Positions 1 through 58,451 of a stretch of DNA of 58,451 nt are shown here, in pieces (the first letter of the stretch is position 1; each line of letters opens with the position of its first letter). Location: IMG/VR virus record IMGVR_UViG_3300035703_000103, positions 1 to 58,451 of that record; one strand, 5' to 3'. Source of the stretch: a virus (taxonomy: Duplodnaviria; Caudoviricetes). The notes under the pieces are model-generated. The model saw only the letters and a program-made list of their open reading frames with translations. It was not told the DNA's origin and searched no databases. Both the position numbers and the translations under genes were made by a program.

Positions 1-5
1 ACCAA

Positions 6-3000
6 ATGGCCGAGGCCATGATCACGCAGATGAAGGACAACCTGGTGTGGCTGCACAACCAGTGGCGTCCTGAACTGCGCGAGCGGTCCCGACTCTGGTA
101 TGTGGGTGGGAATCGAATCTCACACCGCATGGCTTCGCGGTTTAGGACCGAGCCCTGGCGTGTGGCCGCCGTGATTGCGGCGACCAGCCCTCAGAAGGAC
201 TGGTTCCAGAACGTCTCTTTGGCCGAGCGCATTCTGGAGGCTGTGGTCAACAACTCGCAGATGGTCTGGACGGCGCAGATGACCGAGACGGTCAACTCCC
301 GCGACTGGGGCGGCAAGGAGTCGCGCGATCTTGGGTTCACGCCGCGCAATGAAATCTCTCGCCTGCAGGGCAAGACCTTGCGTGATCTGTACGAACCTCA
401 GAATCCGCAGTCTCTTTTGGATATGGCGGTATGGGTTCGCGCTTGGGATGAGACGTACAACCCCCGCATGGCCCGGGTGATCTCGCCTGAAGGCAAGTTC
501 ATTGATGAGTTCGACTCGACCAAGGACGGGCGTCCAATCGGCCTGCGTTGGCAGAGTTTTGCCACCATTGCCAAGACGCTGGACATCCTGACTGCGCCTG
601 ATCGGGCGACAGTGTCTGCCATGATCGGCTCGAACCATAAGGTTCGCTCGTTCTACAACAACATCATCGCGCCGTTTGATGATGAGGACGTGACCATCGA
701 CACCCATGCCGTGGCCGCCGCTCTGATGCGTCCTCTGGGGTCGTCAGCCACCGAGGTGGCTCACAACTTTGGCACCAACGAAAAGGGGATGCCGGGACCG
801 AAGAACAGTGCCATCACGGGACTTTTCGGCACCTACCCGATCTACGCTGAAGCCTATCGCCGTGCGGCCCGCGAGGTTGGGGCGCTTCCCCGTGAGATGC
901 AATCCATCACTTGGGAAGCGGTGCGCGGCCTGTTCCGTCCAGAGCAGAAGAATGAGAGAATCAAGGGCGAGGCAGACCGCATTTGGCGCGAAGTCTCTGA
1001 GGGGGAACTCGATGTCAACGAAGCGCGGCAGCAAATCTCTGGCCTGGTTGGTGGCATCCAAGACCCCGCCTGGGTCAGATCCCCTGCTGGAAGTAATGAA
1101 GCAGCGCGGGATTCCTCTTACGCAGGAGGAGTACCTGAAGATGGCGTACCCGGAAGGGGTGCCCAACCCGGTGCCGCCAGAGGTGATGGCCGAGATGCCG
1201 GCGCAACTCCGGCAAGCCTGAGTCGCGGGCGACGAGTCACGCCCAGCCCTGACTCCGCAAACTTCAAGCGGTGGAGCGGTAACGCACCGCTGATCACCTC
1301 CGCAGCAGCGGTTGACCATGTCTTCAAGACGGGTCAGAAGGTGGTGCTAGAAGGTTTCCACGGCACCGGTCGAGGCGACCGTGTTGGCACCGTGTTCCAG
1401 CGCAAGCGCGCCACCTCCGGCCCGATGGCGTTCTTCACCAGTTCGCCCATGTTGGCCAGCTCCTACGCTCAGGGCAAGCCCGACACCAGCCGCGCACTGG
1501 AGGACAACCCGTTTGAGAGTTGGTTCAAGTTCAAAGGGAAGGGGATGCGAACGGCGGTCAACCTCGACCGCGCGTGGTACTTCCTTGATCAAGAGAGCAA
1601 GGCCAAGATCGCCAAGCGGATGCCTGACATTCGCACGGACGATGACGGCAACATCGTCTACGAAGAGGGCGGCGGCGGCCTTGGCAACTACGACTGGGAA
1701 CTGAAGCAAACCAAGTCGGCCTACCTTCGCGAGGGTAACCCGCTGAAGGCGGCCGTTGAATCTTGGTTGAGCAGCGGCGCCATCTACGGCGACGAGGGCC
1801 GTTTCCGCCAGGTGCTGCGCTTGGCCGGCTTCCCGACGGATGCGCTGGAGTACGACAACCCGCAGGAGACGTACCCGTTCGTCTACAAGGTCTATGTCTC
1901 CATGCTCAACCCGCTGGTGACCAGCGACATTCCGAAGGAAGTGGACGATGCTTTGCGCGCGGCGGCTGCAAAGGACCGCAGCAAGGCCAAGTCACAGTTC
2001 GGCGTGGACTCTTGGGACAAGAACACCCGCACGCTCAAGGAGTGGGTGGGCGAGTATCTGAACCCATCCAACGGGGACAACCGATACGTTTGGACGAGCA
2101 TCCCTGACAAGGTGACCGAGGTCTTCAAGAGCCTGGGTTATGACGGGATCATCGACTACTCGGGGAAGAACGGTTCCACCGAAGTCGCGCCGGTCTACAT
2201 CCCGTTTGAAGAGGGTCAGGTCAAGAGCGCCATAAGCAACAGCGGCGAGTTTGACCGCAGCAAGAAGGACATCCAGGCCAGCAGATCGCGTGAGCGCCTA
2301 CTGTCAATGCCTGCGGTGCCGGTGAGTCCGCTACCTGATGGTATGGCTCTTGGTGATCTTCGTGTCTTGGCTAGTGAGCGGTATAAGGCCGCCGCCAAAC
2401 TTGGCCCCGTCAAGATGATGGATGACCGCGCCGTGCTGCTGACATCGGTCGGGATGAAGAAGTCGCGCAGCCACAGCGCCGACAAGCGGGTGCTGGAATT
2501 GATGGGCTCAATTCGAGAGGTGCTTGGTGCAGCAGAGCCCGTGGCTTCGATTCCGCATCAGCAGGAGAATCCAGGCGACTCAATCCGCGCGTGGCACTAC
2601 TACGGCGCGAAGGTGGATATCGATGGCGAGGAGGCGTTTGCCAAGCTCGTTGTGCGCGAGTCGGTCAACGGCGAGATTTACTACGACACCGACCTGTCTG
2701 GCGTGGAAGATATCAGCGGTCGTGCTGGTGACGCTGCCCGATCCAAAACCGGGGCGGCAGCCGTTTCCGCTGACAAGAGAACTCTAGCCGATCTTCTGGG
2801 CTCAGGCAATCTTGGGAGTGAGGTTGAGTTGAGCCGCGGCCGCTCCGACATCGACCTATGGGGGCAGGCCGGAACCAAGTCGGCTGACTCACTACAGGCC
2901 CTCGCCGATTGGGGTGGGAACAGTATTCTTGGTGACCCCAAAACTGGCAAGCCTGTTGTTTGGTGGGCTTATCGCAGGGCCGGCAGCAAGTCGCGCCTTG

Positions 3001-6000
3001 ACCCAATGCCTTACCCCGACAACGGAATCTATGGCCTGATCGTCACGCCGCTTGGAGTGCAGGCCCGTTTGGACATGGATTCTCCGCAGTCGTGGATCAA
3101 CGAGGCCAATGACTCGGATGAGTATGTCCGCCCGGTGCCAGTCATCATTCGTGGATCGGAAGTGGTGACGGATGATCAACTATTCGACCTGACACAGTCC
3201 AACCCCGGCAAAACCAACGGTCAGATTGCCGCCTCACAAGACATCGCGATGGTGGAGTTGGAAAGCCTGGCTTCCAATCACAAGATCGTTCTCAACCCGG
3301 CTAATGTCATTGAGTTGCGCGGTCCATTACTTGCGCTGATCAACGACGCTGGCAACACCCTGCAGCGTTCTCCTACTGATTACGCCTGGGTGTTCAATGG
3401 GTACGACACCTTGAATGTTGATTCAACCGTGATTACGGAGGATGGGCCTGAGTTGCCGGATGTCAGCTTGAGCCGCGGGCGCGATTCCATGCCGCCCCGC
3501 TTGTACTTGGTCGGGCCGGAACTGGCTGACTCGGCGCAGGGCACGGAAGACATGCCGCGCAGCGCGCAGGATCAGGATGCGCCCCGCCGGACATTCGGCC
3601 TTCGCGGTAAGAGCACGTTCCCTTCGCGGGCTGAAGTGAACTCTATGTCCCGCGAGGAGTTGATCGACTTCCTGCAGGATATGGACCCCAACGGGGACTA
3701 TGCCGATCCTGATCCCGACCCGGATGTGCGCCTGTACCAGACCGCCAGGGGCTGGAACGTGGAGTACAACGAGTACGACGACCCGGGTGAATTCGACTCC
3801 TATGAGAAGGCGTATCGGGCCTACAACGAGGCCAGGTATGCGAATGCCGAGAACCCTCCGATGACGCTGGATCAGGCGCGGGATGCTGCGCTGACGATGC
3901 TGCAGGAGAGCGTGTGGCCGGAGGGCGGCGGCGAGGTGGTGCAGGCGCGGTTTGGAAGGCCGGACATCACGAAGTCCTCTGGCCGTACCACCAGCGCCCT
4001 TGATCTGATCGCCAAGCGCGACGAGATGGGGCGCCTGAAGTTCGGCCTGGGCAGCAAGGCTTACTCCATCGTGGCCGAGATTGCCGGCAATGTGCTGGAT
4101 CGGGTGCGGATGAAGCCCATCTCCGAAGACCTCGCTCGGGCCATGCTCAAGATGAAGGTCGCCATTGAGAAGGCGCAGGAGCGCACGGTGGATGTGGCCA
4201 AGTCCATGAGCGAGTTGGACCCGGCCGAGCGGCAGATGATCTCGGATGTGATCGAGCAGGAACTGACCGCAGGCGTGGTGCCCCCGACTCGGGTTCTGCA
4301 GATCGCGGCGACCATTCAGGGAATCATGTCCGAGCAGTCCAAGGAACTGATTGATTTGGGCATGCTGCGCCAGGAAGACGCCGACCGTTGGGACGGTCGC
4401 TACATCCCGCGCTTCTACGAGCAGAAACTGGGCGAAGAAGCATCGGCCTGGATGAAGGCCGTCAAGCAGTTGTTCACCCGCCCGCGCGCGATGATGGGCA
4501 TCAAGGGCAGCAACCTCAAGTCACGCGGGCTGTGGGAGACGATCCCGGCGGACGAGTTGGATGCTTGGCTGGATGAGGGTTGGGAAGTGCGCGACCCAGC
4601 CTATGACGAGGCCACCTCCACCGAGGTCCGTATCTGGCGCGACTACACACGCCCGGAGCGGGACAGCATGGGCGAGATCCGGGACTCTATGTTCCGATTC
4701 GTCATGGGCTACCAGAAAGCCCAGCGCGACATCGCCTTGGGCAAGATGTACCGGCACATCAACCAGACGATGTCCAGCAGCGCCGAGAAGGATGGATTCG
4801 TTCGGGTGCCGGACTCCAGCATCGACGGCGTGGACGTACCGTCCTACGGCGAGCTGGCCGGCAAGTGGGTTCCGCGCGAGGTGCTGGATCACCTGAGTGC
4901 CTTTGACGCCACGCAGCGCAACGCCCTGACCCGCTTCTACCAGAAGGCCCTGTCCTACTGGAAGGAGGGCAAGGTGGTGCTCAACCCGGTGAGCCACGCC
5001 AACAACATCTTGTCCAACTTGACGATGGCGCACTTCGCAGGCGTTTCATACTGGGACACGCCCAAGTACATGGCCGCGCTGCGGGATATGCACAAGGGCT
5101 CGCCCATGTTGGACGAGGCCAAGGACGCGGGCCTGTTCGTGGGCTCGTTCAACCAGGCCGAGATCGCCAAGGCCCTGCCCGAGCAGTTGAAGGTGCTGGC
5201 CGGCAAGACAGAGAGCAAGGCCGGCAAGGCATTCGACTCGGTCTTCACTTTCTTCACATACTTCCTTCGCAAGCCGATGAACGCGGCCTACGAGCTGGAG
5301 GATCAGTTCTTCCGCTACCTGCTGTACCGCGACGCCCGCACCCGCGGCATGGGGCCTGAGGACGCAGTGCGCCACTCGCAGCGGCACATCTTCACCTACG
5401 ACGATCTGCCGCAGGGTGCTCGCGTGGTGCGCGACACGGCGCTGCCGTTCTTCGCTTACACCTACAAGGTGATCCCGGTCCTGGCCAAGACGGCGCTGGA
5501 GTACCCGCATCGGTACGCAATGCCGGCCGCGATCCTGTACACGATCAATGCACTTGGCTTTGCGATGGCTGCTGGCGACGAGGACGACGGCTGGATGGAC
5601 ATCATCCGGCGCTACTCATCTGACGCCGACTTCCGCAAGAAGGTCAGCGACCTCGAGGGGCAGGAGCGCAAGGACTTGCCGCCGTGGATGCAGGGCGCGA
5701 GTGCTTCGCTTGGCACGCCTAAGGCGATCCGCCTGGGGCAGGATGACAAGACCGGGCTGCCGGTGTACCTGGATGTCAGCAAGATCTTCCCCGGCGGCGA
5801 CCTGTTGGACGTGACGGCCAACGCAGGCGGCCTGCCGTGGCTGCAGCCGCTCACGCCTTCAAGTCCTGTGCTCAACGCGGCCGCGGCTCTGTTCTTCAAC
5901 CGCGACCCGTTCTACGGCAAGGACCTGGTGGACAAGAACGACACGCCGGCAGAGGCTGCAAAGAAGCGCGCCGAGTGGGCCTGGAAGCAGTTCTCTCCGG

Positions 6001-6356
6001 CAATCACGATCTACAACTACCACTGGGACCGCGGCATGAACGTCCTGGCCAACGCCACCGGAACGGACATCCTGGGCTACACCGGGCGCGGCAAGGACGG
6101 CATTCCGGTGGATGCGATGTACGCGGCCATGCAGACCTTCGGCATCAAGGCGCGGCCCATCGACCTGGAGAAGTCAGCCGACATCAACGCCAACAAGGAG
6201 AAGTCCATCATCCGCTCCATTGAGGCAGAAATTTCGCAACTCAAGCGCCTGGAGGCCAAGGGCGCAATGACCTCGGAGAAGGCTCAAAAGCAGATCGACC
6301 TTGAGAACGAGAAGATCCAGCGAATCCGAGACAAGAAGTTGGAGTCAGTTGAATGA
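6..6356 (+). CDS. C-terminal 2116 aa of giant polyvalent (DarB/ddrB-like, probably virion-injected) protein; probably continues from ORF 53444..58451 across the circular junction
   Basis: Modules separated by LSRGR-like linkers. (1) A domain with SPQKDW..N / KVRSFYNNI / VTIDTHA / MQSITWEAVR motifs, HhH-glycosylase-like (tentative). (2) ADP-ribosyltransferase ART-PolyVal-like: FHGT..FFTSSP..YA..VYVSMLNPL..GYDGII..QVKSAISNSGEFD. (3) LPD3-like: WHYYGAKV.IDGE...KLVVRE..NG..YYD. (4) Helical C-terminal region typical of these proteins. Confidence 0.85.
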   Translation: MAEAMITQMKDNLVWLHNQWRPELRERSRLWYVGGNRISHRMASRFRTEPWRVAAVIAATSPQKDWFQNVSLAERILEAVVNNSQMVWTAQMTETVNSRDWGGKESRDLGFTPRNEISRLQGKTLRDLYEPQNPQSLLDMAVWVRAWDETYNPRMARVISPEGKFIDEFDSTKDGRPIGLRWQSFATIAKTLDILTAPDRATVSAMIGSNHKVRSFYNNIIAPFDDEDVTIDTHAVAAALMRPLGSSATEVAHNFGTNEKGMPGPKNSAITGLFGTYPIYAEAYRRAAREVGALPREMQSITWEAVRGLFRPEQKNERIKGEADRIWREVSEGELDVNEARQQISGLVGGIQDPAWVRSPAGSNEAARDSSYAGGVPEDGVPGRGAQPGAARGDGRDAGATPASLSRGRRVTPSPDSANFKRWSGNAPLITSAAAVDHVFKTGQKVVLEGFHGTGRGDRVGTVFQRKRATSGPMAFFTSSPMLASSYAQGKPDTSRALEDNPFESWFKFKGKGMRTAVNLDRAWYFLDQESKAKIAKRMPDIRTDDDGNIVYEEGGGGLGNYDWELKQTKSAYLREGNPLKAAVESWLSSGAIYGDEGRFRQVLRLAGFPTDALEYDNPQETYPFVYKVYVSMLNPLVTSDIPKEVDDALRAAAAKDRSKAKSQFGVDSWDKNTRTLKEWVGEYLNPSNGDNRYVWTSIPDKVTEVFKSLGYDGIIDYSGKNGSTEVAPVYIPFEEGQVKSAISNSGEFDRSKKDIQASRSRERLLSMPAVPVSPLPDGMALGDLRVLASERYKAAAKLGPVKMMDDRAVLLTSVGMKKSRSHSADKRVLELMGSIREVLGAAEPVASIPHQQENPGDSIRAWHYYGAKVDIDGEEAFAKLVVRESVNGEIYYDTDLSGVEDISGRAGDAARSKTGAAAVSADKRTLADLLGSGNLGSEVELSRGRSDIDLWGQAGTKSADSLQALADWGGNSILGDPKTGKPVVWWAYRRAGSKSRLDPMPYPDNGIYGLIVTPLGVQARLDMDSPQSWINEANDSDEYVRPVPVIIRGSEVVTDDQLFDLTQSNPGKTNGQIAASQDIAMVELESLASNHKIVLNPANVIELRGPLLALINDAGNTLQRSPTDYAWVFNGYDTLNVDSTVITEDGPELPDVSLSRGRDSMPPRLYLVGPELADSAQGTEDMPRSAQDQDAPRRTFGLRGKSTFPSRAEVNSMSREELIDFLQDMDPNGDYADPDPDPDVRLYQTARGWNVEYNEYDDPGEFDSYEKAYRAYNEARYANAENPPMTLDQARDAALTMLQESVWPEGGGEVVQARFGRPDITKSSGRTTSALDLIAKRDEMGRLKFGLGSKAYSIVAEIAGNVLDRVRMKPISEDLARAMLKMKVAIEKAQERTVDVAKSMSELDPAERQMISDVIEQELTAGVVPPTRVLQIAATIQGIMSEQSKELIDLGMLRQEDADRWDGRYIPRFYEQKLGEEASAWMKAVKQLFTRPRAMMGIKGSNLKSRGLWETIPADELDAWLDEGWEVRDPAYDEATSTEVRIWRDYTRPERDSMGEIRDSMFRFVMGYQKAQRDIALGKMYRHINQTMSSSAEKDGFVRVPDSSIDGVDVPSYGELAGKWVPREVLDHLSAFDATQRNALTRFYQKALSYWKEGKVVLNPVSHANNILSNLTMAHFAGVSYWDTPKYMAALRDMHKGSPMLDEAKDAGLFVGSFNQAEIAKALPEQLKVLAGKTESKAGKAFDSVFTFFTYFLRKPMNAAYELEDQFFRYLLYRDARTRGMGPEDAVRHSQRHIFTYDDLPQGARVVRDTALPFFAYTYKVIPVLAKTALEYPHRYAMPAAILYTINALGFAMAAGDEDDGWMDIIRRYSSDADFRKKVSDLEGQERKDLPPWMQGASASLGTPKAIRLGQDDKTGLPVYLDVSKIFPGGDLLDVTANAGGLPWLQPLTPSSPVLNAAAALFFNRDPFYGKDLVDKNDTPAEAAKKRAEWAWKQFSPAITIYNYHWDRGMNVLANATGTDILGYTGRGKDGIPVDAMYAAMQTFGIKARPIDLEKSADINANKEKSIIRSIEAEISQLKRLEAKGAMTSEKAQKQIDLENEKIQRIRDKKLESVE
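1012..1221 (+). CDS. Overprinted 69-aa protein nested in +1 frame of giant gene (MSTKRGSK...DPLLEVMKQRGIPLTQEEYLKMAYPEGVPNPVPPEVMAEMPAQLRQA)
   Basis: RBS-like GAGGGGG upstream of ATG 1012; globular-looking sequence; host frame here is G/A/R-rich linker with atypical A/T-ending codons. Confidence 0.7.
   Translation: MSTKRGSKSLAWLVASKTPPGSDPLLEVMKQRGIPLTQEEYLKMAYPEGVPNPVPPEVMAEMPAQLRQA
2711..2775 (-). ncRNA. Putative antisense small RNA with tRNA-Gln(UUG) anticodon stem-loop mimic
   Basis: Minus strand: outer stem UGUCAGCGG/CCGCUGAUA; inner CCCGG-UUUUGGA-UCGGG (5-bp stem, 7-nt loop; 2737-2753); begins about 6 nt after a -10 box. Confidence 0.55.
2781..2809 (-). promoter_or_regulatory. Antisense sigma70-like promoter inside giant gene
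   Basis: Minus strand TTGCCT (2809-2804), 17 bp spacer, TAGAGT (2786-2781). Confidence 0.55.
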
Positions 6357-12607: not shown

Positions 12608-12804
12608 GCCGCCTGTTCAATCGCACGCTGTTGAGCGTTCAGTCGGTCGCGCAGGCGCTCGGCGTTTTCTTGGAAGAACTGGTACTCACCACAAGTTGTG
12701 CCGGTGAATCCATCAACCACGATGAACATCCCGGCGCTGAACATGGATCGTTCAAAGTGAACGAAGTACCGGGCCTTGGGATCGTTTTGGAATGCGAGAG
12801 TCAT
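12604..12804 (-). CDS. Hypothetical protein
   Basis: ATGA-coupled. Confidence 0.55.
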   Translation of the reverse strand: MTLAFQNDPKARYFVHFERSMFSAGMFIVVDGFTGTTCGEYQFFQENAERLRDRLNAQQRAIEQAA

Positions 12805-48032: not shown

Positions 48033-50855
48033 ATGGCCACTAATCCGCTTGGGATCAAGATTCAGGAAACTCCCGGAAATCCCAATACGGGCAACGGCTT
48101 GATTCAGACGGCCATGACCGCTGGTATTGAGGTTGACGACAAGCAGACTGTTGCGGGTCAGGTCCGCAATCTGTTGGCAAACGAGAGTCCGCTGCTACAG
48201 CAGGCTCGCGCAAGAGCTGCCGGCGCTATGAATGCCCGCGGCCTACTCAACAGCAGCATGGCACTCGGGGCGGCCGACTCTGCCATGTATGAGGTGGCCC
48301 TGCCGATTGCGCAGCGTGATGCGGACACATACGCGCAGGCCGCGCGGCAGAACTCGCAGCAGTTCAGCGAGTCATTGAGGTTCAACGCTGCAGAGGCCAA
48401 TAAGTTTGGACTGCAGCGCGACCAGCAGGGTTTCGTGACGCGGGAGCGCGAGGCGGCGCAGGGTTTTCAGACCAAAGAGCGCGAGTCGTCGCAAACATTC
48501 CAGTCTCTTGAGGCGATCAAGGTTCGTGAGTTTCAGGGTGTTCAGGCCGACCTTGACCGAGCCCAGCAGATGCGCGTCGTTGAGTTGCAGGAGTCCGGGC
48601 AGTCAGCCCGCGCTGCTGCAGCGATTGCGGCGCAGGAGCGCCAGCAGAGGGAGGCTCAGGCATTCCAGGCCGCAGAGAACCGTGCGCGAGAGCAGTTTGA
48701 CGCGCAGCAAAGTAAAGCGCAGCAGGAGTTCACTGCGCAGCAAAGCAAGTTGGCGCGTGAGCAAGAGGCCACTCTGCAAAAGGCCCAGTTTGAGTTCACT
48801 GCGGCGCAAGGAGACTTGGACCGCGCTGAGCGGCGGTACGCCACAGACAAGTCGGTGGAGGCTCAGCAAGCCCTGGAGTTGTCACGGCAGCGGTTTCAGC
48901 AGGCCGAGAGCAATCTTGACCGCTTGTTCCAGGCGCAGACGAACGCGGATAACAGGAACTTCACTGCTGAGCAAAGCGCGCTTGATCGCACTGGGCGCCT
49001 GGACCTGCAGCGTGAGGCTCAGTCGTTCAGTGCTTCTCAGGCTGAGCAAGACCGAGCCCAGCAAATTATGCTGGCTGACAGGAACATTACCGCTCAGCAA
49101 GCCTTGGAGAAAGCAAGGCAAGAGTTCCAGGGCGGTCAGTCGGCTCTGGACAGGGCGCAGCAGGTTTCGCTTTCACAGGCGGCCCAGTCGTTCCAGGCGT
49201 CTCAGGCCGAGCAGGACCGCGCCCAACAGATCATGTTGGCTGATCGGAACATCACGGCCCAACAGGCGTTGGAGCGTTCGAGGCAAGAGTTTCAGCGGGG
49301 GGAGTCGGCGCTGGATCGCACGCAGCAGGCATCGCTTGCTCAAGCGGCTCAGTCGTTCCAGGCAAGCCAAGCTGAACTTGATCGAGCCCAACAGTTGATG
49401 CTCACGGACAAGAGCATTTCTGCGCAGCGTGCGCTTGAGATGTCTCGTCAGGAGTTCCAGGGAAATCAGTCTGCGCTTGACAGGGCGCAGCAGGCGTCCC
49501 TGTCCCAAGCCGCCCAGTCATTTCAGGCTTCGCAGTCTGAGCTTGACCGCGCTCAGCAGATCATGCTGGCCAACAAGCAGATCACGGCCCAACAAGCACT
49601 TGAAACGGCTCGGCAGGAGTTTCAGCGAGGAGAGTCCCAACTTGACCGCGCACAGCAGTTGGCATTGAACCAAGCTGCTCAGTCTTTCCAGGCGTCTCAG
49701 GCAGAGAGGGATCGGGCGCAGCAGATCATCCTTGCGGACAAAAACATAACAGCCCAACAGGCTTTGGAGCAGGCCCGCCAGGAGTTTCAGCGTGGCGAGT
49801 CTGCCTTGGATCGTGCGCAGCAGGTTTCTCTGAGTCAGGCCGCGCAGTCGTTCCAGGCATCGCAGTCCGAGAAGGACCGCGCTCAGCAGATCATGCTCGC
49901 CGACAAGAGCATCAACGCCCAACAGGCGCTAGAGCAGGCGCGGTTCCAATTCCAGGCCGAACAGTCTGGACTTGATCGCACCCAGCAGTCCAACCTGGAG
50001 GCCAATCGCATCCAAGCCCAGAAGGACTTGCAGAAGGATCAACAGACGTTTGCATCCGGTGAGGGATTGCTTTCGCGGGAGTTCCAGGCGGGGCAGTCCG
50101 CCCTTGATCGAGCGCAGCAGTCCACGCTGGAATCCAATCGGATTCAAGCCCAAAAAGACTTGCAGACGAACCAGCAGAGTTTTGCATCTGGAGAGGCCGA
50201 CAAGGACCGCGCGCAGCAGGGGCTGATCCTCAAGACCCAGCAGGATTTCCAGTCGAATCAAAACCAAGCCCAACGCGACTTTGAATCTGGCGAGCGCCGG
50301 CTTGATCGGATTTCTGCTGCAGAAGCCGCACAACTCAACCGCGACTTCCAAGCCACGCAGTCGCAACTGGACCGCGACCAACAAACCAGCGTCATCAAGC
50401 TGCAGGACTCTCTGACGCAGGCCAACATCAGCCGCTCGTTCGCCATGAACATCAGCAGCACAACGCTCAACTCCATGAACGCGATTGCTGCCGACCCGAA
50501 TCTGGACCCGGCTTCAAAGAAGGCAGCAATCCAAAACGTGATTGATCAGGCCAACTCCACGATTGCCTGGGGCTCTGCTTTCTTCAACACGCCGCTGCCG
50601 CCTGTGTCTACGCCCGGCTCTGCTGTCGGGCAGTCTGGTTCGGTTGGCGGTTCATCGGGTGGCGGTCTTACTGGGTCCGTCATTACCGGCCCAGGCGGCC
50701 AAGCGCAGCCCGCTCCTGATTACTTCTCGCGCAACCCCGATGTTGGGCGGGCGTATGAGGAGGAGGGTGCGGCCGAGCGCGGCATTGATCCAGAGCAATT
50801 CGCGCAGATTCACTACGACAGCTTTGGCCGAGCTGAGGGCCGCGCGGCTCCGTGA
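48033..50855 (+). CDS. Gln/Ala-rich repeat protein, probable DNA ejection/pilot protein
   Basis: RGLLNSSMA motif; 55-aa tandem repeats; position among ejection genes. Confidence 0.75.
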   Translation: MATNPLGIKIQETPGNPNTGNGLIQTAMTAGIEVDDKQTVAGQVRNLLANESPLLQQARARAAGAMNARGLLNSSMALGAADSAMYEVALPIAQRDADTYAQAARQNSQQFSESLRFNAAEANKFGLQRDQQGFVTREREAAQGFQTKERESSQTFQSLEAIKVREFQGVQADLDRAQQMRVVELQESGQSARAAAAIAAQERQQREAQAFQAAENRAREQFDAQQSKAQQEFTAQQSKLAREQEATLQKAQFEFTAAQGDLDRAERRYATDKSVEAQQALELSRQRFQQAESNLDRLFQAQTNADNRNFTAEQSALDRTGRLDLQREAQSFSASQAEQDRAQQIMLADRNITAQQALEKARQEFQGGQSALDRAQQVSLSQAAQSFQASQAEQDRAQQIMLADRNITAQQALERSRQEFQRGESALDRTQQASLAQAAQSFQASQAELDRAQQLMLTDKSISAQRALEMSRQEFQGNQSALDRAQQASLSQAAQSFQASQSELDRAQQIMLANKQITAQQALETARQEFQRGESQLDRAQQLALNQAAQSFQASQAERDRAQQIILADKNITAQQALEQARQEFQRGESALDRAQQVSLSQAAQSFQASQSEKDRAQQIMLADKSINAQQALEQARFQFQAEQSGLDRTQQSNLEANRIQAQKDLQKDQQTFASGEGLLSREFQAGQSALDRAQQSTLESNRIQAQKDLQTNQQSFASGEADKDRAQQGLILKTQQDFQSNQNQAQRDFESGERRLDRISAAEAAQLNRDFQATQSQLDRDQQTSVIKLQDSLTQANISRSFAMNISSTTLNSMNAIAADPNLDPASKKAAIQNVIDQANSTIAWGSAFFNTPLPPVSTPGSAVGQSGSVGGSSGGGLTGSVITGPGGQAQPAPDYFSRNPDVGRAYEEEGAAERGIDPEQFAQIHYDSFGRAEGRAAP
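49020..49990 (+). repeat. About 6 x 165-bp (55-aa) tandem repeat
   Basis: CAGTC(G/A/T)TT anchors at 49020, 49185, 49350, 49515, 49680, 49845. Confidence 0.9.
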
Positions 50856-52451: not shown

Positions 52452-53431
52452 GCGGCTTGATCTGGAGTGCGCTGGGCAATGCGGTGTCGAATTTCGGCAC
52501 CAACTTTGGCAACGGCATGATTCGCCAGATCGAGCGCGATGAGCAGGAGCAGCGCGAACTGGAGCGGGAGAGGCGGGCCGACCAGCGTGATGAGGCCAAG
52601 TTCCAGCGCCGCAAGGAGGCCGAGGAAGCCGAGCGGATGAAGCAGGCGGGCATCTTTGATCAGGCTGAGAAGAATGCCCTTGTCTCCGCAGATCGGGAGC
52701 GATTTGAGAAGTTCCGAAAGGACGCCAAGACTTCTGGCTCCGAGGCGGATGACGCGACCCTTCGTAAGTTGTTCGACGAGAACTACAACGATCAGGTAGT
52801 AGCCGGCTCTGACCGCTACACGACCAAGTACAGCCGTGACCGCCAACTGGTTCTTGATGAGGTTCGGCGCTTGGGAGGCAACAGCGAGTCGATTCGCTCG
52901 GCCCAGCAGTCCGTCAAGGATGCGCAGACTGCGGAGGATCAGGCTGCGCGGCGAGCCATCGAGCGGGCTGATCTTCTGGCCCGCGAGAAGAAGGGCGACC
53001 AGCAATTTGCAGTCTTGATGCAGCGTGATGAAACAACTCGTCGCGGGCAGGACATCCGGCGTGATTCCCCTGGCGGCGGTAAGGGAGGTAGCCCAGAAGA
53101 AAGGGCCGCCACAACAGCAGACCTTCAGCGTCAGGTGGATAACGCAGAGGCTCGGATGTTGATGATCGTTGGCGGATCAAACAAAGATTTGATGGACAAC
53201 ATCAATCGACTTCGCAAGAAGGCAGACCAGGGCGATCAGGCCGCGAAAAAGAAGTTTGAGGAACTGGAGCCCATGTATCAGCGGTGGGTTTCCGCATCAG
53301 ATCGACTTGATGCCTACAAGAACCCGACAGCTTCCGGTCAAGGTTCGTCTTATTCAGCAGCGCCTGGCAAGCCTGCTGGCAGCAAAGACCGCCCCCCGCT
53401 TTCATCCTTCCAACTCCCCACCAAGAACTGA
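52448..53431 (+). CDS. Probable ejection protein (charged coiled coil)
   Basis: Gly-rich N-terminus, coiled coil; precedes giant gene. Confidence 0.65.
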   Translation: MSGLIWSALGNAVSNFGTNFGNGMIRQIERDEQEQRELERERRADQRDEAKFQRRKEAEEAERMKQAGIFDQAEKNALVSADRERFEKFRKDAKTSGSEADDATLRKLFDENYNDQVVAGSDRYTTKYSRDRQLVLDEVRRLGGNSESIRSAQQSVKDAQTAEDQAARRAIERADLLAREKKGDQQFAVLMQRDETTRRGQDIRRDSPGGGKGGSPEERAATTADLQRQVDNAEARMLMIVGGSNKDLMDNINRLRKKADQGDQAAKKKFEELEPMYQRWVSASDRLDAYKNPTASGQGSSYSAAPGKPAGSKDRPPLSSFQLPTKN

Positions 53432-53443
53432 GACAGGGTCACC

Positions 53444-56400
53444 ATGCGCTTTGATGTCAACGCCGCTCGCAAGGCTGGGTACACCGACGACGAGATTGCC
53501 GACTACCTTTCTGAGCAGCGCGGGTTTGACATTGGCTCGGCGCGGGAATCTGGCTATTCGTCTCGGGAGGTCTTGGACTTTCTGAGCAAGCCTGAGGCCA
53601 AAAAGCCGGCAGCCGCCAACACACCGGCCTATGTCGAGGAGCCCATCAACTACGACGATGCGGCGACTTCGATGGTGGGCACGCCTTCGCAATCAAGCGG
53701 TGGCGGCGTCCTTCAGCGCATCGGCGCGGCGCTGCGGCCTGACCAAAATCGCAGCGTGCTTGAGGGTTACAAGCAACCGGAGGCCGAGCGCCAAGCGGAG
53801 GTTGACCGTCGCCTGTCCTACGGTCAGGGTCCAATCAGTCAGAAGGTCGCGGCCGATGCTGACCGTGTTCGCAGTGCGCGTGGCACGAACGACCAGATCA
53901 AGTTCACCAACCCCACCTATGAGGGCCGGGTGCGGGGTGTCGTTGACGCGATGGATGAGCGTGGTGAGCGTTCGTTTGGCGACCTTGCCGCGCTCGGGCG
54001 TGATGGCGAAATTCAGCGGGCATTGACTCAGAGCAAGGCCGACGAGTTCCGCTCTGCCGGCGAGTGGGCCATCGACACCGCATCCAATGTGATGCAAGGC
54101 GCCGTGTCTCTGGCGCAGATGCCGGTCAATCTGATCGCGCCTGATGGCTCTCTGGCCGAGTCGCTGCGGCAGACTCAGAAGGAATTGCAGGCTGAGGAGT
54201 CTGATGTCCTCAAGGCCAGCCGCGAAGTCCTCAAGCAGCGGGTGATGAACGAGGAAGGCTTCTTCGGTCAGTACGCCGCGACGGTCAAGCAACTGATCAC
54301 AAACCCGACGCTTGCCATCTCTGAGGGCTTCAAGCAGTTGCCGATGTTCCTCGGGATCGTGGGCGCAGCCCGTGGGGGCGCGGCGGCGGGTGCTGCCGGC
54401 GTGGCCGCTGCAGGGCGTGCAGCCCCTACGGTTGCGCTGGCCGATGCAATTGGTGGTGGCGCACTGACGGCGCGGGCCGCCGCTATTGGCAGCACTGTGG
54501 GCGGTGGCGCCGCAGCGGTGACGATGGCCGCAGGCGATGCGGCCGGTCAGACCTACGAGGAACTGACTGATCCCCGGCGCACTCCGCGAGAAACCTGGGA
54601 GCAGAACCCAGACTATCAGCGCCTCGTGGCCGAGGGCAAGACGCCTGATGAGGCGATCAACGAGTTGGCCGTTGCCAAGTCGCGCATGGCCGCACTCGTG
54701 GCCGCGCCACTTGGCATCTTGGGCTTCATGGGCGCCGAGGCAGCAGTTGCTGGTCGCGGCATTGTGCAGGCCGCAAGAGATGCGCTGACCTTCAAGGGTG
54801 CCGCAAAGTCTTTCGGCAAGGAAACGATTGGTGAGCAGTTGGAGGAGGGCGGTACACAGGCCGCATCCAACTTCGCCGTTTCTACGGTCAACCCCAACAA
54901 GTCAATCCTTGAAGGCGTGCCTGAGGCGATGGCGCTGGCCGGCGTCACTTCGACGCCATTCGGCGCGGTTGGCGCCTTGAGCAACTATCAGCAAGCGCGG
55001 GCTCAGTTGGAATCCGGCCCGAACGTGGCGCCACTGGTCGACCTCGAAGGTCAAGCCGCCATTGATGACCGTTACGGCGACACCCTGCGCCCTGAGCGAG
55101 TGGCCGCCGAGCGCGAGCGCCTGGAGCGGATGCGCCGCCTGTCTGAAGCGCAGAGCGTGGATGAGGCGATTGTGCTGGCCAACGAGGTGGCGAATTCGCC
55201 TGTGGCGCCGCAGACGCCTGCTTCACCTGTGGTTCCGGTAAACGCCGGGGATGATCCGGTTCTGAGCAATGTGCTGACATCGCTCGGGGCACTGAGCAAT
55301 CAACCAGGAGGCGTCAATGTCGGGGCATCAAATCAGCCTGCACCCACAGCTACAGGAGGCATTGGAGTTGGGGGCGGTGACGTTCTCGGAAGCCTGGTTA
55401 CTGATGGACGAAATCCTGCTGCAGGACTGCGAGGTGGTGATGATGCCGGCGGAGTACCTGGTGTTAGTAGCCAAGGTGCAGTTGTGCTGGGCGGAGGTGC
55501 CGCCGGGGGTGGTCGTCCAGTAGTTCTCCAGAACCGCGACCGATCAACGGCGGCGTCCATCTCGCAGATGAACAGCATCGCGGCCGCACCCGACTATCTC
55601 AGGACTGGCCCTAGCCGTGAGATGGTCACGGGCGCTCCGGTGGTGTTCGGTGATGTGCCGGAGTCTGCAGCGATGGGGCGGCAGGAGACGGTGGTGGACG
55701 GTCGCGGCAATCGAGTTGCCGTGCAGTACGCCGTGGTGGATGCGGCCGATCTGATCCCGTCTAACCGCGCAGATGGCACCCCGGTTGCCGAGTACGAGCA
55801 AGGCGCATCGGGCAAGTTGCGTGCGGTGGCCGGCAACGGCAGAACGGCCGGCCTGAAGGAGGCGTACAACCGGGGCACGGCAGGTGCCTATCAATCCGAG
55901 ATGATGGCCGACTTGCCCAATCTCGGAGTTGATCCGGCTGCGGTGCAGTCGATGCAGCGTCCGGTCTTGGTGCGGGTCATGTCGCAAGATGATGTGACGC
56001 CCGACATGGGCGACCGCACGAACACGGCGGTGACGCAGAACCTCAGTCCTGTTGAGCAGGCGGCCAACGATGTGCGCCGGGTGGACGTTCGCGGGTTTGA
56101 GTTCACCGACGCAGGCGACCCGACGCCGCAGACGGTTCGTTCGTTCGTGTTCTCTTTGCCGGAGTCCGAGCGCGGCAACTTGCTCAACGCGGACGGCACG
56201 CCCACTCGACAGGCGGTTGATCGGCTTATGGGCGCCACATTCCGTGCCGCCTATGGCAATGATGGGTTGGTGCAGTTGTACGCGCAGGCCACCGACCCGG
56301 ATGCGCGGTCGGTGATCAACGCCGCGGCGATGGCGGCTGGCTCCATGTCCAGCCTGGTTGGGTCCGCCCCGGAGTTCGACATTCGAGGCGTGGTGTCGGA

Positions 56401-58451
56401 TGCCATCGGTATGGCGGTCAACGCCTCTAGGCAGGGAGTTCGCCTCGCGGACTATGCGGCCAACACCGATCTGACCACAGACGCTTATGCGGCTGACATT
56501 GCAAGGTTCCTGGGTGAGAATATCCGCTCACCCAAGAAGATGGCCGAGGGGCTGCGGGCGATGGCGAACTTTGCCGCGCAGCAGCAGCAGGCTCTGGTCA
56601 GCAACGCCACCAATGCCGGCCTGTTCGGGGATCAGCCCACGGCCAGCCGCCAGGAGATCATCAATGCCGTCTTCGGACAAGCCAACGGTCAACCCCAAGT
56701 CGCTGCTAGAAACGCCGCAGTGGCGCAGGATGGCGGTCAAGGTGCTCAACGGGCAGCAACCGACCCAGCAGGAGCAGGACGAGTTTCAGTCGATGGCGCT
56801 GCAGGAAGCCAAGCGGCGACTGGACGAAATGAGCAAGGCTCAGACCAGCAAGGACTGACATCTCCCACGGTCGATCAGGTTCTGCAGCAGCAGGACCGTG
56901 CGGCCAATGAAGCGGAACTTGATCAGCGTGATCAGGTTCGACGCGAGAGCGAGGCGGGCGCCGATCAGTTCACGCTGCAGGCGCAGGATGGCCGGGTAGA
57001 CAACACCGGCAGCCTGTTCTCAAACGACAGGGAGCAGCAGGACGAGGACTTCCTGCAGACCCTGTTTGGTGAAAGCGCGAACCAGGGTGGCACCGCGCCG
57101 CCCCGTGAAACCCCGCAGCAACGACAAGAGCGCCTGCAGCAGGGCGCGCAGAAGCTGCAGCAGTCGGTGGCGCAGGAGATTGAATCGGTCGAGGCGCAGA
57201 TTGCCGACTGGTCGTCCCGCGAGTACAAGGGCAACAAGACCGCGATTGAGTTGCGCGGGGATGGGCCGTCCAATCAGGAGTCCCTGACGGTTGGTTCAAT
57301 CAACGAGGGTCGGCGCCTGAAGGCCATCACCGGCCTGCGCGAATCCTCTGCCGGGCTCAAGCGACTGGCTCAGACGCTGTCCAACCCGCAGCAGGCGGCC
57401 TCGCAGATGGAGCAGTTCGACTCCATCATGGACGATGTCGAGCGTGACTTTGCCACGGGCGGTCGCACGATGTTCAAGACCCCGGATCAGGAGTTCGAAT
57501 ACCGGGTGCTGTCGTCACTTGGCGCGACCTCGCAAGCCGGCAAAGGCGCGGTGACTTCCAGTGGCTTGAGCAAGGCCATACTGCGCGCGGTCAAGCAATC
57601 CCGCGCACAAGGCAAGACCAGCAACTCCGCTTCCCGCCTGCCGACCGTGGAGGGCGTGGGCTCTGTTGTGCAGATGAAGGTCGGGCAGACCTTCCAGATC
57701 CGCGACCAAGGTCAGGTCCACCAGGTCCGCGTGGTAGATGCCAAGTCGGCAGGCATCTCGTCCAAGGCTCTGGACATTGTCGCCAAGGTGTTCGGCAAGC
57801 GTGTGGTGTTCGTGGACCCCGGCACCTTGGATGTGGACGGATTCGTGCGGCCTGACGACAACCGCAACATCTACATCAGCGTGCGCTCCAGGATCAACCC
57901 GTTGGCCGTACAGGGCCATGAGTTGACGCACCTGCTCAAGCGCGACAACCCGCAAGCCTACGCCGCCTTGGAGGCGGTGGTGATGCGCGAACTGCGCGAG
58001 GGTGCGGGAAAGAGCTTCTCGGCCTACTACGGCCCTGGCGCCAACACCGAGGAGTTGGTGTCCGACCTGGTGGGCAACCGCCTGATGGACAAGGATTTCC
58101 TGGTCAGATTGTTCGCCGAGATCCAGGCCCAGAACCCGCAGGGCGCGCAGGGCATCATCGCCAAGTTGGCCGCGATCATCAACCGGGTTGTGTCTCGGTT
58201 CATGGAGTTGTCCAAGCAAGCCGGCTTTGAGACGGACGCCTTGGTCAAGCGGGTGGCCCCGATTCAGGATGCGGTGCGGCAGGCTCTGAAGGAGTACGCG
58301 CTGCAGCAGGGTCTGCGGCCGGCTCAGATGGAGGTTGCGCTGGCGCGTGCGGGAGCGGGCTTGAGCATTGAGGGTGCGGCGCCCGTGCGGCGCAGTCCGG
58401 TTCGACCGGCCAGCGCGGATCGTGCAGACCTCAACCGTTCGCTCGGCGCGC
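53444..58451 (+). CDS. N-terminal about 1669 aa of giant polyvalent protein (runs off window end; missing from ORF track)
   Basis: Starts MRFDVNAARKAGYTDDEIADYL; same frame at all points checked; ddrB-like ParB domain (LQNRDRS..AGNGR..PVLVR, about 55520-56650); zincin HELTH at 57917-57931. Confidence 0.85.
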   Translation, partial: MRFDVNAARKAGYTDDEIADYLSEQRGFDIGSARESGYSSREVLDFLSKPEAKKPAAANTPAYVEEPINYDDAATSMVGTPSQSSGGGVLQRIGAALRPDQNRSVLEGYKQPEAERQAEVDRRLSYGQGPISQKVAADADRVRSARGTNDQIKFTNPTYEGRVRGVVDAMDERGERSFGDLAALGRDGEIQRALTQSKADEFRSAGEWAIDTASNVMQGAVSLAQMPVNLIAPDGSLAESLRQTQKELQAEESDVLKASREVLKQRVMNEEGFFGQYAATVKQLITNPTLAISEGFKQLPMFLGIVGAARGGAAAGAAGVAAAGRAAPTVALADAIGGGALTARAAAIGSTVGGGAAAVTMAAGDAAGQTYEELTDPRRTPRETWEQNPDYQRLVAEGKTPDEAINELAVAKSRMAALVAAPLGILGFMGAEAAVAGRGIVQAARDALTFKGAAKSFGKETIGEQLEEGGTQAASNFAVSTVNPNKSILEGVPEAMALAGVTSTPFGAVGALSNYQQARAQLESGPNVAPLVDLEGQAAIDDRYGDTLRPERVAAERERLERMRRLSEAQSVDEAIVLANEVANSPVAPQTPASPVVPVNAGDDPVLSNVLTSLGALSNQPGGVNVGASNQPAPTATGGIGVGGGDVLGSLVTDGRNPAAGLRGGDDAGGVPGVSSQGAVVLGGGAAGGGRPVVLQNRDRSTAASISQMNSIAAAPDYLRTGPSREMVTGAPVVFGDVPESAAMGRQETVVDGRGNRVAVQYAVVDAADLIPSNRADGTPVAEYEQGASGKLRAVAGNGRTAGLKEAYNRGTAGAYQSEMMADLPNLGVDPAAVQSMQRPVLVRVMSQDDVTPDMGDRTNTAVTQNLSPVEQAANDVRRVDVRGFEFTDAGDPTPQTVRSFVFSLPESERGNLLNADGTPTRQAVDRLMGATFRAAYGNDGLVQLYAQATDPDARSVINAAAMAAGSMSSLVGSAPEFDIRGVVSDAIGMAVNASRQGVRLADYAANTDLTTDAYAADIARFLGENIRSPKKMAEGLRAMANFAAQQQQALVSNATNAGLFGDQPTASRQEIINAVFGQANGQPQVAARNAAVAQDGGQGAQRAATDPAGAGRVSVDGAAGSQAATGRNEQGSDQQGLTSPTVDQVLQQQDRAANEAELDQRDQVRRESEAGADQFTLQAQDGRVDNTGSLFSNDREQQDEDFLQTLFGESANQGGTAPPRETPQQRQERLQQGAQKLQQSVAQEIESVEAQIADWSSREYKGNKTAIELRGDGPSNQESLTVGSINEGRRLKAITGLRESSAGLKRLAQTLSNPQQAASQMEQFDSIMDDVERDFATGGRTMFKTPDQEFEYRVLSSLGATSQAGKGAVTSSGLSKAILRAVKQSRAQGKTSNSASRLPTVEGVGSVVQMKVGQTFQIRDQGQVHQVRVVDAKSAGISSKALDIVAKVFGKRVVFVDPGTLDVDGFVRPDDNRNIYISVRSRINPLAVQGHELTHLLKRDNPQAYAALEAVVMRELREGAGKSFSAYYGPGANTEELVSDLVGNRLMDKDFLVRLFAEIQAQNPQGAQGIIAKLAAIINRVVSRFMELSKQAGFETDALVKRVAPIQDAVRQALKEYALQQGLRPAQMEVALARAGAGLSIEGAAPVRRSPVRPASADRADLNRSLGA
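55317..55523 (+). CDS. Overprinted 68-aa protein nested in +1 frame of giant gene
   Basis: RBS AGGAGG before ATG; hydrophobic/acidic globular sequence; host frame is Gly-rich linker. Confidence 0.65.
   Translation: MSGHQISLHPQLQEALELGAVTFSEAWLLMDEILLQDCEVVMMPAEYLVLVAKVQLCWAEVPPGVVVQ
56664..56858 (+). CDS. Overprinted 64-aa protein nested in +1 frame of giant gene (MPSSDKPTVNPKSLLETPQWRRMAVKVLNGQQPTQQEQDEFQSMALQEAKRRLDEMSKAQTSKD)
   Basis: RBS AGGAG before ATG; host frame has A-ending codons (gga/gca/caa/cga). Confidence 0.65.
   Translation: MPSSDKPTVNPKSLLETPQWRRMAVKVLNGQQPTQQEQDEFQSMALQEAKRRLDEMSKAQTSKD

Follow-up and report, generated by a model that had tools for sequence, protein, structure and literature searches.

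ORF1 and its host gene

The window, meaning the whole stretch of DNA analysed here, is a viral contig of 58,451 nt from IMG/VR (IMGVR_UViG_3300035703_000103) in which portal, major-head and tail genes are present. A giant gene for a polyvalent protein of the virion type carries within it a short open reading frame (ORF), termed ORF1, which lies on the same strand and one base downstream of the host frame starting at 53444. From its composition, substitution pattern and homologues, ORF1 very probably encodes a real protein, as a gene overprinted in the +1 frame on an inter-domain linker of the host protein. The positions of ORF1 and its start signals, of the host gene and of two further nested ORFs are given in Table 1.

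Table 1. Positions in the window of ORF1, its flanking signals, the host gene and the other nested ORFs
Feature	Position	Strand	Description
Nested gene ORF1	55317..55523	+	68 aa plus TAG (55521-55523); +1 frame of host gene
Shine-Dalgarno AGGAGG	55306..55311	+	5-nt spacer to ATG 55317
Nested-frame TGA	55293..55295	+	Closest upstream in-frame stop, 7 codons before ATG
Host-frame linker over ORF1	55316..55522	+	Host residues 625-693, G/A/V/S/P-rich; sequence apparently dictated by nested gene
Block upstream of ATG	55235..55316	+	No differences in G001 or in contig of run X2
ddrB-ParB domain of host protein	55526..55981	+	Residues 695-846; Pfam PF18763, E 3.1e-19
Host gene, 5' part	53444..58450	+	1669 aa, open at window 3' end; giant polyvalent protein
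Host gene, 3' part	3..6356	+	2117 aa, open at 5' end; DUF7178, ART-PolyVal, LPD3 (Pfam)
ORF3, second conserved nested gene	1012..1221	+	69 aa, +1 frame, directly after DUF7178 in giant gene
ORF2, third nested candidate	56664..56858	+	64 aa, +1 frame; AGGAGA at 56652-56657, 6 nt upstream

A preliminary description of this DNA, made from the sequence alone, had claimed a 68-aa ORF in the +1 frame behind a perfect AGGAGG ribosome-binding site, an acidic product, a glycine-rich host frame with A/T-ending codons over the same span, and a stop codon coinciding with the start of the VLQNRDR domain; all of these were confirmed. The AGGAGG of ORF1 was the sole complete one among 293 internal alternative-frame ATGs. 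The stop codon overlaps the codons for VV in VVLQNRDR, the point at which homology with other ddrB-ParB proteins sets in, the Pfam match itself running from residue 695.

Codon composition over the span of ORF1 differed from that of the rest of the host gene. The GC content at third codon positions (GC3) was 0.30 in the host frame, compared with 0.73 for the whole host gene, and 0.855 in the nested frame. Codon log-likelihood ratios were +0.50 bits per codon for the nested frame and -0.41 for the host frame. On this measure ORF1 ranked first of 66 embedded ORFs (those on the same strand, of at least 50 aa and inside window genes of at least 250 aa), the next best scoring +0.15. The best-scoring +1 codon segment at ORF1 (55299-55520, 39.8 bits) begins just past the upstream in-frame stop and ends at the last sense codon. 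The +1 segments of the giant gene, at ORF1, ORF2 and ORF3, scored 39.8, 42.1 and 35.2 bits, respectively, compared with 15 bits or less for the best segment of every other window gene. The host frame over ORF1 is of low complexity, yet it is kept open.

The host gene is interrupted only by the ends of the window. In the relative IMGVR_UViG_3300035703_000115 (G001) its two parts form a single continuous ORF of 4189 aa, and 171 nt of G001, between its positions 12793 and 12965, span the gap between the end and the start of the window with the frame continuous. It follows that the window holds almost an entire genome in permuted order, and that the host gene is a single giant gene for a polyvalent protein of approximately 3,800 aa. 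This gene (53368-58451 and 1-2853) was 95-96 % identical to G001, compared with 67-90 % for most other aligned parts (67-96 % for all parts outside the gene), which suggests a recent swap of the giant gene between two phages co-occurring in run X1. The capsid protein of the window had its nearest GenBank match, 72 % identical, in an uncultured Caudoviricetes record. Elsewhere in the alignment, 48973-49985 gave several overlapping, offset matches to positions 4392-5068 of G001, indicating internal repeats in the gene for a 940-aa protein at 48033-50855.

Conservation of the nested frame

The window and G001, which together count as one lineage, showed 334 differences in the aligned giant gene (approximately 95 % identity). 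Outside the three nested ORFs, 263 of 327 differences (80.4 %) fell at host codon position 3, as did 152 of the 190 in the 5' part of the gene, whereas none of the seven differences within ORF1 (55361, 55362, 55400 and 55460) and ORF3 (1077, 1179 and 1200) did so (Fisher p 1.5e-5). All seven, four in ORF1 and three in ORF3, were synonymous in the nested frame, against a neutral expectation of 28 % for each (p 1.4e-4, or 5e-4 with the adjacent pair counted as one event). Five of them altered a host residue, the remaining two being AGA>CGA changes that are synonymous in both frames. The density of differences was 1.9 % in ORF1, 1.4 % in ORF3 and 0 % in ORF2, compared with 4.9 % outside, and the three nested proteins were 100 % identical between the window and G001; ORF2 was identical also at the nucleotide level, which makes a substitution test impossible for this ORF.

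The phage occurs in runs X1-X5, from subsurface and freshwater samples, with no RNA run among those listed. Further sequence from these runs added little variation at the locus. The contigs of run X1 hold both known genotypes and are probably not independent, and runs X2 and X4 add only 55400 A>G. A freshwater contig from run X2 carried eight substitutions and 21 nt of deletions, in frame overall, in 55180-55234, and a single base difference from 55235 onwards, so that the conservation boundary at 55235 was sharp in this contig.

More distant homologues were identified in two ways. A phmmer search with ORF1 against 1.84 billion representative proteins gave four matches of 67-69 aa, all aligned from residue 1, with 41-50 % identity and E values from 3.6e-10 to 1.9e-4. 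A pattern scan of IMG/VR with the homologue alignment gave 15 candidate stretches, of which five were confirmed loci, namely G001 and four new ones on the contigs G002 (GC 0.64), G003 (0.44), G004 (0.44) and G005 (0.49). At the four new loci the homologues are 66-69 aa long, begin with ATG-TCA-GC at the first ATG past an in-frame stop, in open frames of 70-86 aa, and each occupies the +1 frame of a giant ORF, the four ORFs measuring 1402, at least 1886, at least 1901 and 2217 aa. A purine-rich, Shine-Dalgarno-like stretch is found 3-7 nt upstream (GGGGAG, GGGGAA, AAGGAA and AGAGGA in L031, L032, L033 and L034, respectively), and ATG-TCx-Gxx, encoding M-S-A/G, is the first start after the in-frame stop in all five lineages. 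Conservation of the frame, on which the preliminary description had made its proposal of an overprinted gene depend, thus extends to four further viral contigs.

Differences among the five lineages numbered 317, 219 and 378 at nested codon positions 1, 2 and 3, respectively. The fewest fell at nested position 2, which is the wobble position of the host frame, in all 10 pairwise comparisons, and the most at nested position 3 in nine of the 10; two control regions coding in the host frame only gave 143/121/211 and 176/125/219 at the host positions. Protein identity was higher in the nested frame (0.35-0.58) than in the host frame (0.10-0.39) in every pair, at nucleotide identities between lineages of 0.47-0.65 over the nested span. 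Together with the changes between the window and G001, these counts indicate that the nested frame is the frame under purifying selection, and the homologous loci indicate that the nested arrangement is conserved in otherwise unrelated phages.

The translation of the host frame over the nested homologues was again of low complexity, with recurring AGGV-like stretches that represent the host-frame reading of the conserved nested motif EAWLLQD. The host frame was nevertheless open at all six loci, for which the probability by chance was 3e-4 to 1e-3 in each low-GC locus, so that both frames are maintained. In self-trained codon scores, the nested span was the extreme of its gene in L031, L033 and L034, with no window scoring as high or higher. 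Codon usage was also considered as a guide to which frame is the older and was rejected as inconsistent, since it was the nested frame that better resembled the genome in the window and L031, but the host frame that did so in the low-GC loci.

Searches of GenBank phages and of genome contigs were negative, and no cultured relative came to light among the GenBank phages. The tBLASTn comparison proposed in the preliminary description gave nothing beyond one 30-bit match in GenBank phages when queried with ORF1, ORF3 and the L033 homologue, blastn of the ORF1 region against GenBank phages gave no match, and two scans of genome contigs revealed no prophage copy. A match in L005 (34 % over 62 aa, with CWAEVPPG in common) is to the main-frame product of an unrelated gene, a protein of 478 aa without a Pfam family; it was taken as chance because it reached 30 bits only and had been selected by an exact 8-mer pattern.

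Gene product, further nested genes and associated modules

The predicted ORF1 product starts MSGHQISLHPQLQE, has cysteines at residues 38 and 57 and is without an N-terminal hydrophobic stretch. It has an isoelectric point (pI) of 4.09 and a net charge of about -8, and seven of nine family members have pI values of 4.0-4.7. AlphaFold2, run on nine sequences, returned a model with a predicted local distance difference test score (pLDDT) of 76.8 and a predicted template modelling score (pTM) of 0.56, in which three helices span residues 10-17, 23-35 and 45-58. The best structural match of this model was A8HNW3 (probability 0.98, TMq 0.73, E 0.56), and a search of the ESM Atlas gave no usable match.

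ORF3 represents a second conserved family, its codon segment covering 973-1236 (35.2 bits). One homologue is the predicted protein P0007, which is 74 % identical; another, of 65 aa, is found in G006 (GC 0.385), where it is nested in the +1 frame of a 2679-aa ORF directly after DUF7178, as in the window. The model of the ORF3 family had a pLDDT of 73. The codon segment of ORF2 (56676-56855, 42.1 bits) is the strongest in the giant gene and ends at the last sense codon, and the host GC3 dips to 0.37 here; no homologue of ORF2 was found, including by a word-index search. In the place equivalent to that of ORF2, after the ParB module, L009 (2324-2551) and L011 (1912-2160) carry +1 nested ORFs of 75 and 82 aa, each behind AGGAG, that are 54 % identical to one another (E 1e-22) and show no significant similarity to ORF2. 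The ParB-type polyvalent gene of L014 contains a +1 candidate of 124 codons (4368-4742, 47 bits). None of the nested products of L009, L011, L014, ORF2 and ORF3 belongs to a known family.

The preliminary description had placed ORF1 just before the ddrB-ParB domain; an association between the two did not hold up. Of the five ParB-bearing records other than the window, none matched the ORF1 family profile at E≤1, and 11 other loci with a ParB module had unrelated linkers and no ORF1 homologue by tblastn. The four distant host proteins gave no Pfam ParB match, and one metagenome scan with the host ParB alignment identified a single locus, which was without ORF1. The co-occurrence check proposed at the same time was positive for a different neighbour: the host module upstream of ORF1 has homologues in L032-L034. 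Over residues ~349-514 the similarity is weak but recognizable in L033 (E 3.6e-4) and L034 (E 3.2e-8), with motifs such as GDAA..YE and EEGGTQ in common. These distributions indicate that ORF1 is tied to the upstream module and not to ddrB-ParB, the link with ParB being incidental. The capsid protein of the window had no match in G002-G006 despite the homology of the module, which indicates that the upstream module travels between otherwise unrelated phages.

The idea that ORF1 encodes a transmembrane chaperone was rejected, one marginal hydrophobic segment being found in the upstream module of the window and none in those of four relatives. A complex prediction for the ORF1 protein with host residues 280-624 gave a score of 0.00 and a mark of 0.32 without controls, and was counted neither way.

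Interpretation and comparison with known systems

Several points weigh against ORF1 as a gene. By chance the host gene should contain approximately 7.6 open +1 runs of 68 codons or more, so that the open frame alone is at chance level. The comparison with G001 comprises seven differences only, from one lineage. The block of low difference around ORF1 (55235-55584) extends beyond it, and a difference-free block of 500 nt (56544-57043) surrounds ORF2, showing that patches of recombination occur; since these blocks are longer than the ORFs, the low divergence may partly reflect recombination. The deep alignments were guided by the nested protein, which somewhat favours the nested frame, and the nested codon score was negative in absolute terms in the low-GC relatives and not extreme in L032, where eight of 169 windows scored as high or higher. 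The phmmer matches (P0003-P0006) come from short Logan and ENA contigs and might be free-standing copies, and ORF1 yielded no candidate in a word-index search of proteins. Neither Pfam nor PHROGs contained a family that matched ORF1 or three of its homologues at E≤1, save one chance match of 11.5 bits, and no structural match of the ORF1 model reached E≤0.001 in PDB (six at E≤10) or BFVD (30 at E≤10).

If ORF1 is a gene, ribosomes would start independently at the conserved Shine-Dalgarno sequence and ATG on the late mRNA of the giant gene, and a 68-aa acidic protein with three predicted helices would be made alongside the giant protein. The linker itself may have arisen through fusion of neighbouring module genes, with the fused frame reading through a small intervening gene. 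As ORF1 travels with the upstream module and the second nested family with DUF7178, the small protein may be a cognate partner of the upstream module, acting as a chaperone, assembly factor or inhibitor. This is a tentative proposal to which we give rather less than an even chance, and it draws on co-occurrence alone. In its general form, giant polyvalent virion proteins would have been built by fusing module genes across small partner genes, which survive in the linkers as genes read in the +1 frame. This phage would have three or more of them, and relatives would have further families. Each product would be the cognate chaperone or inhibitor of the preceding module, and polyvalent genes would be hidden operons in which a single long frame is accompanied by several short ones; this extension is possible but doubtful.

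Alternatively, the nested gene may be real and its product independent of the giant protein, for example a host-directed or counter-defence factor such as an acidic mimic, whose gene would simply occupy the unconstrained linker and be expressed from the late mRNA. The strong acidity of most family members is in keeping with such a role. Polyvalent proteins are described as conflict weaponry in the available text of PMC5512222, and nested proteins of other viruses are often suppressors of host defence, according to the available text of PMC8227390. On the other hand, the ORF1 gene was found only together with the same upstream module, in phages without detectable capsid similarity, and the second nested family keeps its place after DUF7178, for which a module-specific role is the better fit; we regard an independent product as unlikely.

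A programmed +1 frameshift out of the host frame would instead yield a truncated isoform of the giant protein with a 68-aa alternative tail. The strong internal Shine-Dalgarno-like element at 55306-55311 could stimulate shifting, as internal elements of this kind do in release factor 2 (prfB) and dnaX. The arrangement of the locus argues against such an event, however, and we regard it as very unlikely. The TGA at 55293 confines any entry into the nested frame to a short stretch, and in the relatives the open frames (70-86 aa) are little longer than the proteins (66-69 aa), which leaves 3-19 codons for a shift. The M-S-A/G start is the first after the in-frame stop in all five lineages, the homologues found by protein search align from residue 1, and no slippery or stop-containing shift site was seen on reading the sequence of 55296-55317.

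Slightly more improbable again is that ORF1 is not expressed and is either left over from an ancestral linker or domain that underwent a compensated frameshift, or an ORF of the kind that GC-rich DNA typically contains by chance. Open +1 runs of this length are indeed expected by chance, and the high GC3 of the alternative frame could be the fossil of an older frame. This explanation is largely refuted by the retention of start, stop and length across GC contents of 0.44-0.64 and by the full-length matches, reaching E 3.6e-10, among 1.84 billion proteins; it also leaves unexplained both the seven nested-synonymous changes out of seven and the order of deep differences in the nested frame (position 2 < position 1 < position 3). 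The least probable explanation is that the conservation stems from a nucleic-acid element acting in cis (an RNA structure, a packaging site or a regulatory site) or from an antisense gene, and not from a sense +1 protein. In its favour, the low-difference block is longer than ORF1. Against it, the RNA fold of 55235-55340 is unremarkable (z -1.16), no sigma-70-like promoter was found in the block upstream of ORF1, neither promoter-like nor terminator-like sites were detected, the periodicity at position 3 and protein-level homology at nucleotide identities of 0.47-0.65 argue for coding, and the antisense ORFs across the span are short (41-81 aa), the longest being of low complexity.

Gene callers drop ORFs that are nested in longer genes, and proteins of this kind are consequently absent from phage annotation. 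Here two small-protein families, independent of each other, have been conserved across GC contents of 0.39 to 0.64 within the linkers of giant injected proteins, and there are additional candidates. If the arrangement of ORF1 and ORF3 is general, polyvalent-protein genes would encode more products than thought, low-complexity linkers would partly be by-products of another gene's sequence, and the nested proteins would be prime candidates for factors that fold, silence or load very large proteins. The ORF1 locus would be a clean natural case of a linker and a folded protein sharing one stretch of DNA.

Nested +1 genes are already known in phages, whereas nested genes in the linkers of polyvalent proteins appear to be undescribed in the literature searched, in which no paper contains the term 'DUF7178'. 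In the available text of the founding paper on polyvalent proteins (PMC5512222), 'overlap' and 'frameshift' are absent, and the words 'nested' and 'embedded' are applied to hairpins and peptidase domains. An annotated internal ORF, iddB, also lies within the gene for a ddrB-ParB protein, the ddrB of phage P1 (L029). It is situated on the opposite strand and inside the ParB region, and was unmatched in the tblastn searches against GenBank phages; being on the other strand, it is not analogous to ORF1.

Closer parallels are found among phage genes that overlap on the same strand. In the lambda-type Rz/Rz1 spanin pair, the small Rz1 gene lies entirely within Rz, shifted by +1, and begins at a start codon of its own, the two proteins being translated from a single late transcript. 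ORF1 resembles Rz1 in this fully internal +1 position. The two differ in that Rz1 is a secreted lipoprotein whose host gene, of approximately 150 aa, encodes a small membrane lysis protein, whereas the ORF1 product has no signal peptide or lipobox, its host is a polyvalent protein of approximately 3,800 aa, and the overlap is confined to a linker. PhiX174 and other small phages likewise have genes that overlap out of frame on one strand and carry separate ribosome-binding sites, a combination also seen in ORF1. In those tiny genomes the overlaps are read as genome compression, whereas the window represents a double-stranded DNA phage of 58 kb in which the overlaps are specifically in the linkers of one giant gene.

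Two systems outside these overlaps resemble the proposed history of the locus. Immunity genes of polymorphic-toxin cassettes are free-standing, unlike ORF1, and no toxic activity is known for the module upstream of ORF1; by analogy only, the nested genes are like them in that a small gene lies directly downstream of a module and is inherited with it, just as a cognate immunity gene follows each toxin module (in outline from the available text of PMC5512222). The polymerase gene of hepatitis B virus, an animal reverse-transcribing virus, differs from the present case in its much longer overlap and different frame relation, and has no sequence relationship to it. Its spacer over preS/S is likewise a flexible inter-domain region in an alternative frame of a smaller gene, for which the available text of PMC8227390 gives the proposal that a short gene originally lay between two domain genes that fused, and by analogy the same origin may be proposed for the linker that contains ORF1.

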